Positions 14,630-49,273 of a stretch of 64,000 nt of DNA are shown piece after piece. A program made the position numbers and the translations under genes. Origin of the DNA: an uncultured Clostridia bacterium (GTDB taxonomy: Bacteria; Bacillota; Clostridia; TANB77; CAG-508). A model generated the notes under the pieces. The model was not told the origin of the DNA, searched no databases, and saw only the letters and a program-made list of their open reading frames with translations. The stretch lies in assembly GCA_934149165.1 (NCBI GenBank), contig CAKPDY010000002.1, positions 14,680 through 78,679 of the forward strand, read 5' to 3'. Each line of letters starts with the position of its first letter. Within the stretch, counting starts at the first letter, position 1.

Positions 14630-16024
14630 TTATTTTTTTGTAGGTATACGAATAACTACTTCTGTTCCTTTACCCACTTCACTTTTTATATCTATACTTC
14701 CATTATTTTGATTTAAAATTTCCTTTGCAATTGACAAACCAAGACCAGTTCCTCCAAGTTCTCTTGAACGTGCTTTATCAACCCTATAAAATCTTTCAAA
14801 AATTCTTGATAAATCTTCTTCTGGAATTCCAAGTCCATTATCAATAATTTTTATATATGCATCATTATATACAAATCCAACATATATTTTTATAGTTCCA
14901 TTTTCCTTTGTATATTTAATACTATTTGTTAATATATTAAGCACTACTCTTTCTATTCCAGATTTATCTGCATACACTAGAGGAACATTTGCAGTAACTA
15001 AATTTTCAACTTTATGGTGTTTTTTAGATATTTCAATTTCAAGCTTTTCTTGGCATTTTTTTACTAACTCTCCTAAATCAAACTCTGTTTTTTCAGGTTT
15101 AATTTTGTTATTATCATATTTTGATAATGATAATAAATCTGTAACTAATTTAGCCATTCTTCTTGCTTCAGATGCAATTACATTTAAAAATTTGTTTCGT
15201 GTTACATCATCATATTCACCTTCTAATAAAGTGTCTACATATCCCATTATAGATGTAATTGGTGTTTTTAATTCATGTGATACATCTGCAACAAATTCTT
15301 TACGCATATTATCTAATTTAACATGTTCTGTAATATCTTGCACAACTGCAATTACCCCTGCTGTTTTTTTATTGTAATCCTTATATGGCACAAATAATAA
15401 ATTAATATATTTATCATCAATGTGTATTTTTTTATCTGATGAAGTCCAATCTTCAAGATATATTATTTTTTCTAAATTAATATCTACATTAAATTTTGAA
15501 AAAACTTTGTCAAAATCATTATCATCTTGTGTTAAATTTAGTAATTTTTCTGCCGCTAAATTTTTATGTGTAACTTCACCTTCTAAATTAAAAGCAATAA
15601 TCCCATCTGTCATATACAATAATATTGTTTCAATTTGCTTTTTTTGCCTGTCTACATCTTTTAAATGTTCACGTATTTCTAATGTTGCTTCATCAAATGC
15701 ATACATAAACTCATCTCTTGCCTTATCTTTTTCTCCTATTAATTTTAGTTGAGTTTGTTCACCTGTAACAACTTTTCCAGCATCTTTAATTATATTTACC
15801 ATTGTTTTCTTTATTATATTATCTAATATTTTTGAAGATATAAGAGTTACACCTATGAAAATAAAAATTGAAATACATAAATATTTTTTTGTTATACCTA
15901 TTATTTCATTACTATTTGTAATATTTGCTATATTACTTACATATAAAAGCCATATTCCACTTATTAATATTAATCCTACTATTATAAAAATAAATGTTAA
16001 TTTATTTTTAAGTGATTTCGTCAT
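14630..16024 (-). CDS. sensor histidine kinase (2 TM helices with a short extracytoplasmic loop, PAS domain, HisKA and HATPase_c)
   Basis: H-box VSHELKTPITSI, N-box LTNSIKYT and G-box GTGLGLSIAKE. It is directly downstream of the OmpR-family response regulator. Confidence 0.8.
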   Translation of the reverse strand: MTKSLKNKLTFIFIIVGLILISGIWLLYVSNIANITNSNEIIGITKKYLCISIFIFIGVTLISSKILDNIIKKTMVNIIKDAGKVVTGEQTQLKLIGEKDKARDEFMYAFDEATLEIREHLKDVDRQKKQIETILLYMTDGIIAFNLEGEVTHKNLAAEKLLNLTQDDNDFDKVFSKFNVDINLEKIIYLEDWTSSDKKIHIDDKYINLLFVPYKDYNKKTAGVIAVVQDITEHVKLDNMRKEFVADVSHELKTPITSIMGYVDTLLEGEYDDVTRNKFLNVIASEARRMAKLVTDLLSLSKYDNNKIKPEKTEFDLGELVKKCQEKLEIEISKKHHKVENLVTANVPLVYADKSGIERVVLNILTNSIKYTKENGTIKIYVGFVYNDAYIKIIDNGLGIPEEDLSRIFERFYRVDKARSRELGGTGLGLSIAKEILNQNNGSIDIKSEVGKGTEVVIRIPTKK

Positions 16025-44480: not shown

Positions 44481-44627
44481 TTAAATTTCCTTTCTAAACT
44501 CCCTTTAATTCAGTTTATTAAATTATATTAGTAATATTCTTATTTTTCAAGTGTTTTTTTTAATTTAGAAAACAAATTTCCCTAAAACTATTGATTTTTT
44601 AGCAATTTTATAGGATAATATAAGTAT

Positions 44628-46973
44628 ATGATTTTTTGTATGAAAGTGGTGAATTTTTTGAAGTTAATAGATAAATTATTGAAAAAATTAAAAACAGATA
44701 GAAACACATTTTTTACATATATACTAACACTAATAACAATATATTTAGTAGTAGATAGATTTGTAGACTTATTAATAATGATTTTCACTGGAATTGCATC
44801 AAGCTATTGGAATCCAATACAATATTCTATAGCATTTGCAGTGCCAATATTTGCATACTTATTTTCTTGTAGTTCTAAATTTATAAAATCACAAGAAATG
44901 AAATTGTCATTTTTCTACACATACATTGTTGCATTGTATATATTAGTAATTTCAATGTTCGTACAATGGATAAATGCTGGCTGTTGGTTTTTACTTCTTT
45001 CTCTTCCTAAATATCCAATAATAGCCACAAAATTTAGTTACTTAATAAAACCTGCATTTTGCTCTATTTCAGCATTTTTGCCTTTAACAACATTTTATTC
45101 AGTATTTAAATTTTTATATACACAAGTTAATGATTCACGATTATTGCAAGAAGCAATTTATGAATACAAAGGAATTAGCTTAGCACCAAAAAGTGCAAAT
45201 ATTGGACCAAACACTTGTGAAATCACTTTAGGAACAGATTATAGGAATGGAAAATCAGTTAAGATTTCAGAGAAAAAGCGCTTTGAATCAATGCTTGTTG
45301 TAGGCGTTTCAGGTTCAGGAAAAACTTCATTAATATATGAACCTATGATAGCAAAAGACATTGATAAAAAATATCAATACAGAGAGACTGGCAAAGAATT
45401 AGCCTTTGTTGCATTAAAAACCGGAATAGCAACTCTGTCTTGTCCTTACGATAATACTTATATAAATAACAACTTTAATTTAAACATGATACAACCCAAA
45501 GAAAATAAAATTAAAATATTTCAATCATATATGAAAAAAATGATTTATAATATATCATCAAGTGGAACAATTTATAGAAATTTAGGTATTACTTATATTT
45601 CACCAGATTATGAATCAATATCACATATTTTAGAAATTGCTAAAGCATATAAAATTTCTGTAAACCTTGTTGATCCAAAAAATCCTGAATCTCAAGGACT
45701 AAATCCTTTTGCATATGATGATCCAATGCAAACAGCAGTAACTATTTCAACTGTTTTAAAAGGGCTAGCTCATAATTCAGGTAACTCTGTTGATATTGCA
45801 TATGAAAATACATATTCTTATCAAGTTATTGAAAACTTATCAATATTATTGAAAGAAATGTATCCAAGAATGCATGATGGTGAATTACCTACACTTGAAG
45901 ATATGTTAAGTATGTTAAATGATTTTAATTTAGTTGAATATATGTGTAAAGAACTTGAAAAAGATGAAAATCTTGAAAAACAATATTCTGTATTACTTTC
46001 TTACTTCAAAAAGAATTTCTATTCAAATGGTCCTGGAAGAGAAAATACAGAAAAATATGTATATTCTGCAAGTACATTGTTAGATAATTTATTACGTTAT
46101 CCAGGAATTAGAAGAATTTTATGCAATAGAACAAATAACATAAACTTTGACAATACACTTGTAAATGGTGATATTACATTACTATGCACAAGACGTGGAG
46201 ATTTAGGTACCTCAGCACATACTGCATTTGGTTTATTCTTTATATTATCAATGCAATACGCAATATTAAGAAGACCTGGAAATGAAAATACTCGTATTCC
46301 TCATTTCCTATATATAGATGAATTTCCAGACTTCATTTGTTCACAAACAGAAGCTATATTTACAATGTATAGAAAATATAGAATTGGTACTGTAATTTCA
46401 ATGCAAAATCTTGATCAATTAAATGTATCAAACAAAAGATATAGAAGTACAATTATAGCAAACTGTGCCAATAAAATCGTATTTGGAAATAATACTCCTG
46501 AAGATAACGAATGGTGGAGTAAAGAACTTGGTGAAGAAAAGAAATGGACATTTAAACAAAGTTATGATACTGCAAAGGGTACTTATGATGCTAAGTTAGG
46601 TGATATAAGTTACAAAGCAGATACACGATACAAAGCAGGAAAAATACAAAGCACAAAATTCAAACAATGTTTATATAAAATTGCTTCTGATAGTGGAAGA
46701 TATGAAAATGGTGTTTGTGTATTAGATTTTGTAGAAGCTAAATATAAAGAACCCCATGAGGTTAATAAATATAATTTTGAAAAATATAGTAACAGTAATT
46801 CAAATTATACTGATTCTAAAAAAACAAAAAAGAAAAAATCTGTTATAACAAGTTTTTCTGAAGATGATAATACTGAATTAGAATTAGATCCAATTAGAAC
46901 TGATATATCAGATTCATTATTTGAAAGTAATTCAGAAGATGCAATTATAACTAAAAAATTTAATAATACATAA
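44628..46973 (+). CDS. VirD4/TraG/TraD-family coupling-protein-like P-loop ATPase with an N-terminal polytopic membrane domain, lacking any other recognisable conjugation genes nearby
   Basis: About 4-5 N-terminal TM helices, then Walker A VVGVSGSGKTS and Walker B LYIDEFPDF. The TraG/VirD4-type C-terminal region reads TVISMQNLDQLNVSNKRYRSTIIANCANKIVFGNNT. 781 aa. Confidence 0.55.
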   Translation: MIFCMKVVNFLKLIDKLLKKLKTDRNTFFTYILTLITIYLVVDRFVDLLIMIFTGIASSYWNPIQYSIAFAVPIFAYLFSCSSKFIKSQEMKLSFFYTYIVALYILVISMFVQWINAGCWFLLLSLPKYPIIATKFSYLIKPAFCSISAFLPLTTFYSVFKFLYTQVNDSRLLQEAIYEYKGISLAPKSANIGPNTCEITLGTDYRNGKSVKISEKKRFESMLVVGVSGSGKTSLIYEPMIAKDIDKKYQYRETGKELAFVALKTGIATLSCPYDNTYINNNFNLNMIQPKENKIKIFQSYMKKMIYNISSSGTIYRNLGITYISPDYESISHILEIAKAYKISVNLVDPKNPESQGLNPFAYDDPMQTAVTISTVLKGLAHNSGNSVDIAYENTYSYQVIENLSILLKEMYPRMHDGELPTLEDMLSMLNDFNLVEYMCKELEKDENLEKQYSVLLSYFKKNFYSNGPGRENTEKYVYSASTLLDNLLRYPGIRRILCNRTNNINFDNTLVNGDITLLCTRRGDLGTSAHTAFGLFFILSMQYAILRRPGNENTRIPHFLYIDEFPDFICSQTEAIFTMYRKYRIGTVISMQNLDQLNVSNKRYRSTIIANCANKIVFGNNTPEDNEWWSKELGEEKKWTFKQSYDTAKGTYDAKLGDISYKADTRYKAGKIQSTKFKQCLYKIASDSGRYENGVCVLDFVEAKYKEPHEVNKYNFEKYSNSNSNYTDSKKTKKKKSVITSFSEDDNTELELDPIRTDISDSLFESNSEDAIITKKFNNT

Positions 46974-47000
46974 AGGTATCTTTTAGATACCTTTTATTGT
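46972..47000 (+). terminator. rho-independent terminator after the T4CP-like gene
   Basis: The stem aaaggtatc pairs with atacctttt across the loop ttttag, followed by a U-rich tract. The stop codon lies at the stem base. Confidence 0.65.
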
Positions 47001-47128
47001 AATTTTACAGAAATTTTCACTTATTGAAAAAGTAAGTTAAATAAAGTAAGTAAGCATAAGAAAAAACGGACTTTTTGAAATGTTATCAAAATTTCGTTTT
47101 TTCTTTTACAGTAATTTTAAAAAAAATA

Positions 47129-47157
47129 TTGACACAATATATTTTTTGTTGTATAAT
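47129..47157 (+). promoter_or_regulatory. consensus sigma-A promoter (TTGACA-17-TATAAT) driving the small acidic ORF
   Basis: The sequence ttgacacaatatattttttgttgtataat has perfect -35 and -10 hexamers with a 17-bp spacer, about 60 nt upstream of the ATG at 47220. Confidence 0.55.
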
Positions 47158-47219
47158 TTTTTTACATTAATTTTATTAGTGTATTTTCCTTGCAAATAAT
47201 TTTAAAAGGAGGGTTTGTT

Positions 47220-47351
47220 ATGGCATCAAGACCTGATCCTGATGACGTTTATTATGATGAAGACTCTGGTTTATTCATAGATTCTGAATCAGGTGACGCA
47301 TACTATGATGAAGATTGTACAGATTTCTGTATAAATATCTACCCTGATTAG
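47220..47351 (+). CDS. small highly acidic protein (43 aa, rich in Asp, Glu and Tyr, two Cys); not in the ORF track because it is under 60 aa
   Basis: ATG 7 nt after the strong RBS aaaggaggg. It translates as MASRPDPDDVYYDEDSGLFIDSESGDAYYDEDCTDFCINIYPD*. A consensus promoter lies upstream and a terminator hairpin at 47372-47412 downstream. Confidence 0.45.
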   Translation: MASRPDPDDVYYDEDSGLFIDSESGDAYYDEDCTDFCINIYPD

Positions 47352-47371
47352 TTGTGCCACACCCAAAATAT

Positions 47372-47412
47372 CCCCAGAAATTTTATAATTTCTGGGGGTT
47401 GTTTTATTTATT
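47372..47412 (+). terminator. rho-independent terminator
   Basis: An 11-bp stem (ccccagaaatt pairing with aatttctgggg) around a ttat loop, followed by gttgttttatttattt. Confidence 0.65.
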
Positions 47413-48353
47413 TACATTCCCAATAATTTAACTTGTACATTTTCCATTTTATATTTACCACTTTTTTCATCAATTTTAAAAGTAACTAAAGTTTTATCTA
47501 AACTCTCTTCATTTTGACGTAAATCAGTTGTAAAATATAATCTGATTTTATCTATTTCAACTTTATTAACTACAATTTCTTTAAAAGTTTCAGCAATATG
47601 TTTATCATCTTCACATACTAAAATTAATTGTGGAATATTTTTGTATCCTGAATCACCTGGAACAAAATTATCATAAAAATCTTTAAATAATCTCATTTTT
47701 TCCACTAATTTCTTTTTCCAGTCATCTTCTCTTCTTATAACTTCAAAAACAAAATCTATTGACTTTGATGCTTTAGCTAATTTTATACTACCTCCTGTTG
47801 CTTTAAATGTTTTTCCTGCCATTTTAGCTGTGATTGTTGGCTTTGGAACATAACTTTCAAATGCTTTTACTTTTCTTAAATACGCAATTATTGTTTGATT
47901 TCCAGCTAAACGTTTTTTTATCATAGCAACTGGTTTTGCATTATCACTAGGCTGCCATTTACACTCCTTTTCCCTTGAAGTTAATAAATATTTTCCCATT
48001 TTTTCCATACAATATATTCTGTAAATTCCTTTTCCATCGTCAGAATTAAAGAAATATCTTGTTAAAATTTTTGATCTTACTAATTGATCTAATTTATTAT
48101 TTAATTTGTCCTGAGATTTTACGTCAATTCCTTTCCACTCTAGTAATTGAAATAATTGTCTTGATGTTATAAACTCAAATTCATTTACTAAATATAATAT
48201 TTCAAAATGAATATCTGTTATATGACCAATATTTATCTTATGTACAATTTGATTCATTGAAACATAACCATCTTTACCATCAAAAGTCTTAATTTCTCCT
48301 TCTCTAATAGCAAAAGGTGATACTGTTGCTTTAATTTCATTATCATTAACCAC
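47412..48353 (-). CDS. hypothetical protein, possibly a winged-helix replication-relaxation-like protein
   Basis: 313 aa, soluble, with no catalytic motifs I can name. Its size and position next to the T4CP-like gene suggest a mobile-element-derived partner, but this is uncertain. Confidence 0.35.
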   Translation of the reverse strand: MVNDNEIKATVSPFAIREGEIKTFDGKDGYVSMNQIVHKINIGHITDIHFEILYLVNEFEFITSRQLFQLLEWKGIDVKSQDKLNNKLDQLVRSKILTRYFFNSDDGKGIYRIYCMEKMGKYLLTSREKECKWQPSDNAKPVAMIKKRLAGNQTIIAYLRKVKAFESYVPKPTITAKMAGKTFKATGGSIKLAKASKSIDFVFEVIRREDDWKKKLVEKMRLFKDFYDNFVPGDSGYKNIPQLILVCEDDKHIAETFKEIVVNKVEIDKIRLYFTTDLRQNEESLDKTLVTFKIDEKSGKYKMENVQVKLLGM

Positions 48354-48463: not shown

Positions 48464-49273
48464 TTATACAATTAGTAATTTTATTTTTTTTCTATCTGGA
48501 ACAATTTTTTTAATGTAAACATCTACGTTTTGTCCATATTCAATTCCTTCTTTGTATTCAGCCATTCCAACTAGATTTGGTTTTAATTCTATAAAAATTC
48601 CATTTTTAGATTTTTCCGTTTCCCTTGCAATTCCTGTAACTGTTTCGCCCTCTTGAAAATCTTTAACATTATCTTCCCATGTTCCTAGTAATTCTTTATA
48701 TGTTAAAATAACTCTTTCTAGCCTTCTATCTATACATTTTATCATAACATTTATTTTTTGTCCAATTTTTAATCTTTCTGCTGGTGTTTTTATTCTAGCT
48801 ATTGAAATATCTTCTATATGTAATAGTCCAACTATTCCTCCACCTATTTCAACAAATACACCATATGGTTGCATACTTTTTACTATTCCATTTACAACCA
48901 TTCCTTCTTTTAAATCATTTGAAATCCAATTTAATGCATCTTTACCAACTTCTTTTCTTGATAATATATAATTGTTTTTTGAATCTTTATCTTTAACTTT
49001 GAATTGTACATATTTATTAACCTTGCTCATACATATATTTGGTTTTGGAAATCCTGTTTCTTCAACATTTACTGCCTCAACTTCTTCTCTTGGTATTATT
49101 CCTGTTATGTTATTTCCTAAATCTACATATAAGTTATAATTTGAATCACATTTATTTACTTTACCTTGTAAAATTTCCCCAGTTGTTATTGCGTTTAATA
49201 AACTTTCTTCAGTGATATTTTGGTTATTTATATTCCACCCTTCAGGTAAAAATCTTTGGTATTCCATTTGCAC
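48464..49273 (-). CDS. S1 RNA-binding-domain protein with two S1 repeats
   Basis: ..GEILQGKV..YNLYVDLG.. and ..GMVVNGIVKSMQPYGVFVEIGGGIVGLLHIEDIS.. are S1 folds. 269 aa. Confidence 0.65.
   Translation of the reverse strand: MQMEYQRFLPEGWNINNQNITEESLLNAITTGEILQGKVNKCDSNYNLYVDLGNNITGIIPREEVEAVNVEETGFPKPNICMSKVNKYVQFKVKDKDSKNNYILSRKEVGKDALNWISNDLKEGMVVNGIVKSMQPYGVFVEIGGGIVGLLHIEDISIARIKTPAERLKIGQKINVMIKCIDRRLERVILTYKELLGTWEDNVKDFQEGETVTGIARETEKSKNGIFIELKPNLVGMAEYKEGIEYGQNVDVYIKKIVPDRKKIKLLIV

Follow-up and report, generated by a model that had tools for sequence, protein, structure and literature searches.

The stretch of DNA analysed here, referred to below as the window, comprises 64,000 nt (positions 14,680 to 78,679 of contig CAKPDY010000002.1) from an uncultured Clostridia bacterium of the TANB77 lineage. 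It includes a gene for a VirD4/TrwB-type coupling protein (type IV coupling protein, T4CP), a convergent gene for a 313-amino acid (aa) protein (p313) and, between the two, a gene for a 43-aa peptide (pep43). These three open reading frames (ORFs) had been singled out in a preliminary description made from the sequence alone, and all three are present where it placed them. A gene encoding an S1/OB-fold (oligonucleotide/oligosaccharide-binding fold) protein was found directly upstream of the p313 gene and in the same direction. The GC content is low (~25%) across the window, and nearly all genes are on the minus strand. The features of the locus are as follows.

44570–44657, plus strand: region upstream of the T4CP gene, conserved clade-wide (alignment of 17 loci; promoter scan)
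44658–46973, plus strand: VirD4/TrwB-type coupling protein, T4CP (Pfam, alignment, hydropathy, AlphaFold2 (AF2), fold search)
44700–45134, plus strand: membrane-anchor region of the T4CP, residues 25–169, four long helices (hydropathy, AF2 secondary structure)
45303–45329, plus strand: Walker A motif GVSGSGKTS (alignment A2)
46302–46325, plus strand: Walker B motif HFLYIDEF (alignment A2)
46972–46994, predicted on both strands: hairpin terminator immediately 3' of the T4CP stop codon (10-pair stem)
47129–47212, plus strand: promoter, 5' untranslated region (UTR) and ribosome-binding site (RBS) of the peptide gene (promoter scan, shuffles)
47220–47351, plus strand: pep43, encoding the 43-aa Asp/Tyr-rich peptide (ORF list, profile family)
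47370–47399, both strands: bidirectional intrinsic terminator shared by the ends of pep43 and the 313-aa gene (13-pair stem)
47412–48353, minus strand: p313 gene, GTG start with a strong RBS, the last gene of an RluD-RluB-S1 string (Pfam, AF2, Foldseek)
48464–49273, minus strand: S1/OB-fold protein gene, 269 aa with about three S1-like repeats (Pfam S1, 9e-25)

Coupling protein, relaxase-like protein and proposed S1 partner

The T4CP matches the Pfam models TraG-D_C (46.8 bits; cut-off 22) and TrwB_AAD_bind (26.8 bits; cut-off 20.5), and a Foldseek search of its soluble domain against the PDB ranked Cagbeta (8e-11), TrwB (3e-9) and DotL (1e-7) at the top, followed by DndH, HerA and VirB4. Alignments to the first three covered both the nucleotide-binding and the all-alpha domains, with target TM-scores of 0.52–0.65, yet the sequence identity to TrwB (R388), Cagbeta and DotL is 13–15%, and a sequence search of the T4CP and p313 families against PDB chains gave no match. 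PHROGs returned a spurious P-loop match only. The AF2 model has a mean predicted local distance difference test score (pLDDT) of 57, and of 80–90 in the all-alpha region. In an alignment of 17 T4CP homologues of 57–86% identity (alignment A2), Walker A (residues 226–234) is fully invariant, and in Walker B (residues 559–566) H559-Y562, D564 and F566 are invariant and E565 is present in at least 90%; conservation extends to the membrane part and to the acidic stretch ELDPIRTD at the C-terminus. The typical coupling protein has two N-terminal membrane helices. Hydropathy and the AF2 model both predict four long ones here (residues 25–54, 62–80, 89–124 and 137–169), which bears out the unusual multi-pass N-terminus pointed out in the preliminary description.

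Membership of the canonical FtsK/SpoIIIE family, named beforehand as the competing identity for this ATPase, was rejected, as neither Pfam nor NCBIfam gave an FtsK_SpoIIIE match and no FtsK chain was among the 50 best fold matches. Judged from these profile and fold matches, the protein is a VirD4/TrwB-type coupling protein, as first proposed, and not an FtsK. The multi-pass membrane DNA pumps FtsK/SpoIIIE and Streptomyces TraB offer a possible functional analogy only, in the combination of a multi-helix anchor with a hexameric-type motor that is encoded chromosomally and has no secretion apparatus.

The ATPase had been described as a 781-aa protein starting at ATG 44628, but this codon is only 9 nt past a conserved -10 hexamer, and an RBS-like sequence (AAAGTGGTGA, 44643–44652) and a start codon are conserved further downstream. 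The ORF itself stands, and translation probably starts at TTG 44658, giving 771 aa. The upstream signals consist of a TTTccCcAAA motif, a -35 hexamer (TTGATT, 44591–44596) and the -10 hexamer (GATAAT, 44614–44619), and the ~95 nt 5' of the gene, comprising motif, -35, -10, RBS and TTG, are conserved clade-wide (17 loci, in which the T4CP is 47–86% identical to that of the window). In the window and 16 further loci, this non-coding region is more conserved than the T4CP protein. The TTTccCcAAA element is not accounted for by any of the readings considered below and could be an operator.

The 313-aa protein had been listed as being of unknown function. It scores 21.5 bits against Replic_Relax (PF13814; cut-off 25.3), covering model positions 1–106 of 191. 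An exhaustive search showed that 22 of 39 distant p313 relatives match PF13814 at E < 0.01 (best 7e-8), and two relatives, P0310 and P0314, cover positions 1–183. In the literature, PF13814 belongs to the PD-(D/E)XK superfamily (PMC3424549) and corresponds to the MOBC relaxases, e.g. MobC of CloDF13 and TraX of pAD1, which have an N-terminal winged helix and for which a covalent DNA intermediate was not detected (PMC5357655, PMC12857230). The AF2 model of p313 (pLDDT 63) consists of a winged helix, with a three-helix bundle and a beta-hairpin at residues 46–115, then an alpha/beta domain predicted at residues 166–274. Foldseek found winged helix-turn-helix (wHTH) proteins of the PadR, MarR and TFE types with a probability of 1.0, and weak full-length matches to FokI, SduA and MspJI (E ~1e-3 to 2e-2). 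Conserved residues are K145, N151, E203, R206, E247, H251 and D276, the last five of which are conserved throughout the wide p313 family. On this profile and model evidence, p313 is a winged-helix protein, probably of the Replic_Relax/MOBC-relaxase superfamily, with an activity that is only predicted. The label 'unknown' can thus be replaced, and because the protein is relaxase-family-like, the earlier statement that the locus has no relaxase gene was wrong. No type IV secretion system (T4SS) or integrase gene is linked.

The S1 gene gave only partial matches, far under cut-off, to rpsA models, and its product is proposed to be a nucleic-acid-binding partner in the same module. S1 and p313-like domains are fused in P0310 and P0314. 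The original grouping of three genes had left this upstream gene out, and the S1/p313-like pairs and fusions place it in the module. Upstream of p313 only the RBS is conserved and the gap to the preceding S1 or RluB gene is often very short, suggesting co-transcription with the preceding gene. The intergenic regions adjoining p313 yielded no other conserved motif and no repeat array, and no oriT-like (origin of transfer) motif or direct-repeat array was found between T4CP and p313, where 74 distinct gaps hold only species-specific terminators.

Giant proteins of 1400–1735 aa (P0309, P0329 and about ten similar) were also found to carry an S1-like N-terminus and a p313-like domain (residues ~310–610), together with a NACHT or Roc-COR NTPase and pentapeptide repeats. 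In such STAND-type proteins the part made up of S1 and p313 may act as sensor or as effector.

Distribution in relatives and counterparts on plasmids and phages

The lineage consists of uncultured gut Clostridia with ~25% GC and genomes of roughly 1.5 Mb, which fits published accounts of TANB77 as prevalent, and as uncultured and of reduced genome size (PMC11680825). When each GTDB species was scanned through a single genome, p313 turned up in at least 555 species, including Clostridium sp. CAG:571 and circular chromosomes of ~1.55 Mb assembled from metagenomes. Relatives were examined as loci of up to 21 kb. In the best 80 loci, p313 nearly always follows S1-RluB-RluD. The T4CP gene is its convergent neighbour in 36 of 70 informative loci of this p313-anchored set, whereas an independent set of metagenome loci, anchored on the T4CP, has p313 next to it in 67 of 73 informative cases. 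The T4CP gene stays with MurJ-HU in the six exceptions, and is therefore retained when parted from p313.

Median identities to the window in the T4CP-anchored set were 89% for HU, 70.9% for RluD, 70.8% for p313, 68.2% for RluB, 63.4% for S1, 57.5% for the T4CP and 56.2% for MurJ. The identity of p313 exceeded that of the T4CP in 63 of 63 loci in this set, and the two were correlated (r = 0.79). In the p313-anchored set the values were 78.6% for p313 and 80.9% for EF-Ts, the higher p313 values there being biased by the way the set was selected. With a divergence like that of their housekeeping neighbours, the T4CP and p313 genes are best regarded as fixed and vertically inherited among housekeeping genes. 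Even a p313 relative of only 45% identity, from another lineage, keeps its place after RluD-RluB. A recent insertion of a mobile element was rejected, as there is no shift in composition and no flanking repeat or tRNA, and all relatives have the genes at this same site. The closest tRNA genes lie at 36.5 kb and at 63 kb; as had been reported, no repeats of note flank the locus.

Counterparts of the three proteins, with 27–30% identity, were found on Clostridium plasmids. Both C. botulinum pINGR16-02E1 (NZ_KT897276) and C. beijerinckii p1 (NZ_CP107023) have a p313-like gene (28–30% identity) that is immediately preceded by a homologue of S1 (27%); this pair alone was seen in the stretch of pINGR16-02E1 examined. 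Plasmid p1 also encodes a T4CP of 1001 aa that aligns with that of the window (9e-60) over both the unusual membrane part (28%) and the ATPase part (30%). Its gene adjoins one for a DUF87/VirB4-like ATPase and genes for large membrane or surface proteins, a putative Gram-positive T4SS. Other companions of the plasmid copies are Rad52, Toprim-like and recombinase genes, whereas none of these companions is present in the window or related loci, and no homologue of the plasmid T4SS-region genes was found in the 64-kb window or in ~180 related loci. As homologues of S1 and p313 adjoin each other on both plasmids and p1 has that of the T4CP as well, the trio looks like one ancestral plasmid module. 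MOB-suite types these plasmids as 'non-mobilizable', i.e. no known relaxase was detected, and the S1/p313-like pair may be their unrecognised relaxase. The Pcp locus of pCP13 was considered as an example of the same module and rejected, as it has a different relaxase (PcpD2).

Full-length structural matches of p313 to ~275-aa proteins of large Bacillus phages were also found. One of these, A7KUX4 of phage 0305phi8-36 (283 aa; 1e-8), has the same length as gp200, which is annotated as 'replication initiation by nicking' and whose gene adjoins that for the VirD4-like gp201 (PMC3357382). A tblastn search of a phage collection with p313 gave no match. The 'DNA translocation operon' of 0305phi8-36 and SPO1 resembles the locus described here in that a MOBC-related protein stands beside a VirD4-like ATPase outside a conjugative element (PMC3357382). 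However, the operon belongs to phages, which can do without it under laboratory conditions (PMC3357382), and the profile similarity of its proteins to those of the window is weak.

The closest characterised parallels are MobB/MobC of CloDF13 and TraX of pAD1, where, as here, a membrane-anchored T4CP is combined with a small relaxase-family protein that begins with a winged helix (PF13814; PMC12857230, PMC5357655, PMC3424549); the restriction-endonuclease-like domain of those proteins has a putative counterpart in p313. Those modules are plasmid-borne and serve plasmid transfer, whereas the one in the window is chromosomal and fixed in a whole clade. In addition, its genes are convergent and not in an operon, an S1/OB-fold partner is added, there is no recognisable oriT, the T4CP has four helices in place of the usual two, and the p313 of the window is below the PF13814 cut-off. 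TrwB, Cagbeta and DotL always work with a dedicated T4SS; none is linked here.

We favour, with a probability of roughly 60%, the reading that the region is a chromosomal, vertically inherited, three-gene DNA-processing and coupling module (S1, p313 and T4CP) of the kind found on large, conjugative-type Clostridium plasmids.

Several findings weigh against this. The p313 of the window is under the Pfam cut-off and its match is confined to the wHTH half of PF13814; a canonical PD aspartate is not evident, so that any nuclease or nickase activity is only putative. The profile similarity to phage gp200 and gp201 is weak (E = 0.0095 and 7.8e-5), and the confidence of both AF2 models is low. In the 34 p313-anchored loci lacking an adjacent T4CP gene, p313 is followed by unrelated housekeeping genes (such as DnaG, MutL or a P-type ATPase). 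On the complete chromosome OV788638.1, too, there is no T4CP gene beside p313. Relatives of p313 in two loci (L185 and L186) stand alone, without a T4CP, and p313 and the T4CP may thus not need each other. Finally, no T4SS, integrase or oriT-like conserved motif is linked in the window or related loci, so that any outlet for the DNA is hypothetical.

The main, though less probable, competitor is that the neighbours are independent, p313 and S1 being a housekeeping nucleic-acid-binding or nuclease protein, or a regulator of the RluD-RluB-S1 operon, possibly acting on RNA, and the T4CP being an unrelated membrane motor, with their adjacency simply inherited synteny. The 34 loci just mentioned are consistent with this, as are the position of p313 at the end of a co-directional string, with a strong RBS as its only signal and, in many species, very little space to S1 or RluB, and the typical RNA-binding role of S1 domains. 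A relative with 45% identity from another lineage still follows RluD-RluB, without a T4CP or S1, and one S1 plus p313 fusion stands alone among metabolic genes. The different rates at which p313 and the T4CP diverge (70.8% and 57.5% median identity) point the same way. However, homologues of all three genes, at similar divergence, are found together on C. beijerinckii p1, a MOBC-type relaxase with a T4CP is an established pairing (PMC12857230, PMC3357382), and p313 is the neighbour in 67 of the 73 T4CP-anchored loci.

The small peptide and the variable gap

The promoter of pep43 (TTGACA-17-TATAAT, 47129–47157) is the only perfect match to this pattern in the window; the expectation from shuffled sequences was 0.11, with 11 of 100 shuffles containing one. 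It is followed by an AGGAGG RBS (47207–47212) 7 nt before the ATG at 47220, and the terminator at 47370–47399 has a stem of 13 pairs, five of them GC, and a run of T on each strand, a separate fold giving the same hairpin. The strong promoter, RBS and terminator that had drawn attention to the peptide were thus all found. The spacer (46974–47411) gave no match better than E = 0.15 to any small RNA or riboswitch in Rfam. The peptide contains an internal duplication (DVYYDED/DAYYDED), with a 31-nt direct repeat (D1) in the gene.

A first tblastn search at 1e-5 found no homologue. The idea that pep43 is a chance ORF was overturned once a scan of the gaps for acidic, Tyr-rich ORFs and a subsequent profile search revealed a family of at least 11 clusters of 43–56 aa, with one truncated or fused outlier of 77 aa, which share the motif YD[DE]xxGx[FY][YI]DxE[ST]G...NIY. 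Homologues in the same position and orientation were found in L047, L053, L094–L099 and L143, and in all contexts seen except one they are between the T4CP and p313 genes and in the direction of the T4CP. The exception is found in L154 (4980–5260), where murJ and the T4CP gene are separated by a cassette of promoter, ORF and terminator that encodes a homologue of 40 aa. This cassette is missing from the otherwise near-identical L133 contig, and its presence therefore varies at strain level. Every site of the family examined adjoins a T4CP gene, in keeping with the view that the small ORF is a real gene. Conservation in relatives, which the preliminary description had wished to see, was found in part: the peptide is in the same place in several more distant relatives, but is absent from the closest (L087; T4CP 86% identical, gap of 132–159 bp) and from most species. 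From its family and setting, pep43 is a genuine accessory gene on a strain- or species-variable cassette flanking the T4CP, and its signals predict strong expression.

Complementary 9-mers flank the peptide ORF in the cassettes of L047, L094 and L097, with CTCAGCTAG in the 5' UTR and CTAGCTGAG in the 3' UTR, which suggests conserved 5'-3' pairing in the mRNA. They are not present in the cassette of the window.

In other relatives the gap between the T4CP and p313 genes contains clusters resembling those for RiPPs (ribosomally synthesised and post-translationally modified peptides), as in L092 (9455–12803), L004 (10379–11794) and the gaps of L045, L067 and L032, with precursors of 47–63 aa. As judged from its contents across relatives, the gap is a hot spot of recombination in which cassettes for small peptides and RiPPs accumulate. 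It is thus conceivable that pep43 is itself a precursor, as a RiPP of the Tyr-x-Asp cyclophane type that is matured by an enzyme encoded elsewhere and is not a partner of the T4CP. The gap in relatives holds YxD[RH]-repeat precursors beside radical SAM (rSAM)/SPASM maturases, which are closest to cyclophane-forming enzymes (DynA, 1.6e-61, then YhhB, AmcB and GrrM, none of them reaching the cut-off). An rSAM enzyme in one relative stands beside a peptide of 80 aa rich in Cys and Asp, and pep43 itself has repeated aromatic-x-Asp triplets (YYD, FID, YYD). However, no maturase, transporter or protease is adjacent in the pep43 cassettes inspected (the window, L047, L053, L094–L099, L143 and L154), each of which is a self-contained unit of promoter, ORF and terminator, a leader-like N-terminus is not evident, and the only rSAM gene in the window is that for the pyruvate formate-lyase activase. 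The orientation also differs, the pep43 family running with the T4CP gene and the RiPP precursors with p313. As the peptide also had no match among the precursor families of NCBIfam and Pfam, we consider a RiPP precursor rather improbable.

The site beside the HU gene (hup; equivalent to ~42185–42437 in the window) is one at which small mobile elements have repeatedly inserted in relatives, and counts as a hot spot (L087, 1800–3200; L005 and L089). One of these elements carries a tyrosine integrase and an HTH_17 protein, and others a serine recombinase, a Mob_Pre (MOBV) relaxase and an AAA ATPase; elements with a relaxase only are thus ~2.3 kb from the chromosomal T4CP gene. Further along, a gdpP-like ORF with DHH and GGDEF_GdpP domains (40174–42184, minus strand) ends in an unusual Arg/Cys-rich tail. 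An overlapping ORF of 46 aa in a different frame contains GGGGHITLAGAQ, which is the GGGH motif expected of DHHA1, and the tail is probably due to a frameshift or sequencing error near 40300.

Other explanations and possible role of the module

The preliminary description had also raised a defence-type system, and an anti-phage or anti-plasmid system made up of a T4CP-like motor and a PD-(D/E)XK-type nuclease was considered. In its favour, PADLOC matches the ATPase to mad8 (4e-13), the defence ATPases DndH-C and HerA are lower among the T4CP fold matches, S1 and p313-like modules form the N-termini of the giant NACHT/Roc-COR proteins, and the gap is a hot spot for variable cassettes. However, the mad8 match is confined to the P-loop region, which is generic, and the remaining MADS components are missing; the PADLOC matches of p313 are marginal and in the helix-turn-helix region (E ~2e-3), and S1 and the peptide have none. 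The genes are also fixed in hundreds of species and slow-evolving, whereas typical defence genes are patchy and fast-evolving. A defence system is therefore very unlikely, the search having given no specific support for one.

The other origin suggested at the outset, that a conjugative or mobilisable element once integrated here and is now decaying, fits the lack of any remaining T4SS, integrase or repeats and the insertion of mobile elements nearby, beside hup, in relatives, but has next to no probability given that the frames are intact, the Walker motifs and the T4CP promoter, RBS and start are conserved across the clade, and the same chromosomal site is occupied in hundreds of species with a divergence that parallels that of the flanking genes. 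Because the site is fixed, the signals are conserved, the divergence is housekeeping-like and the genes are retained, the term 'remnant' is rejected and the other term first offered, a module domesticated from a mobile element, is favoured.

If the three-gene module is functional, its mode of action can be sketched from what is known of the protein families. The winged helix of p313 would recognise a specific DNA site, on which its restriction-endonuclease-like domain would act, possibly by nicking, and the S1 OB-fold partner would hold single-stranded nucleic acid. The membrane T4CP hexamer would then take over the nucleoprotein complex, probably via its acidic C-terminal tail, and pump the DNA using ATP. 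As no T4SS is linked, the outlet would be either a T4SS that conjugative elements resident in the cell provide in trans, mobilising DNA of the chromosome or of integrative and mobilisable elements, or the system would perform a DNA-handling task internal to the host.

A coupling protein or a relaxase is usually taken as the hallmark of a mobile element, and is counted as such by annotation pipelines and in mobilome surveys. Here, a relaxase-like protein and a T4CP, with an OB-fold partner, appear to be inherited vertically in hundreds of species. Modules of a MOBC relaxase and a T4CP are already known on plasmids, integrative and conjugative elements and phages, but in the literature we found no description of one that is fixed clade-wide among housekeeping genes with an OB-fold partner and a four-helix T4CP.

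A more far-reaching proposal, which we make tentatively and regard as possible rather than probable, is that a plasmid relaxosome and coupling-protein module was converted, throughout an order-level clade, into a core cellular machine with its own conserved regulation and a host function, the small acidic peptide being a strain-variable modulator of the motor. Such a machine might constitutively export or mobilise DNA of the chromosome, or perform a step in DNA handling like that of FtsK. If this is true, it would be the first conjugation-derived pair of relaxase and T4CP that behaves like a housekeeping system. If the pair represents an unrecognised relaxase family, this would also explain why large Clostridium plasmids with a putative T4SS are typed as 'non-mobilizable'. 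A functional module would point to export of DNA or mobilisation of the chromosome in the gut under the control of the host, to conjugation parts put to a new use in the cell, or to an unrecognised family of relaxases.

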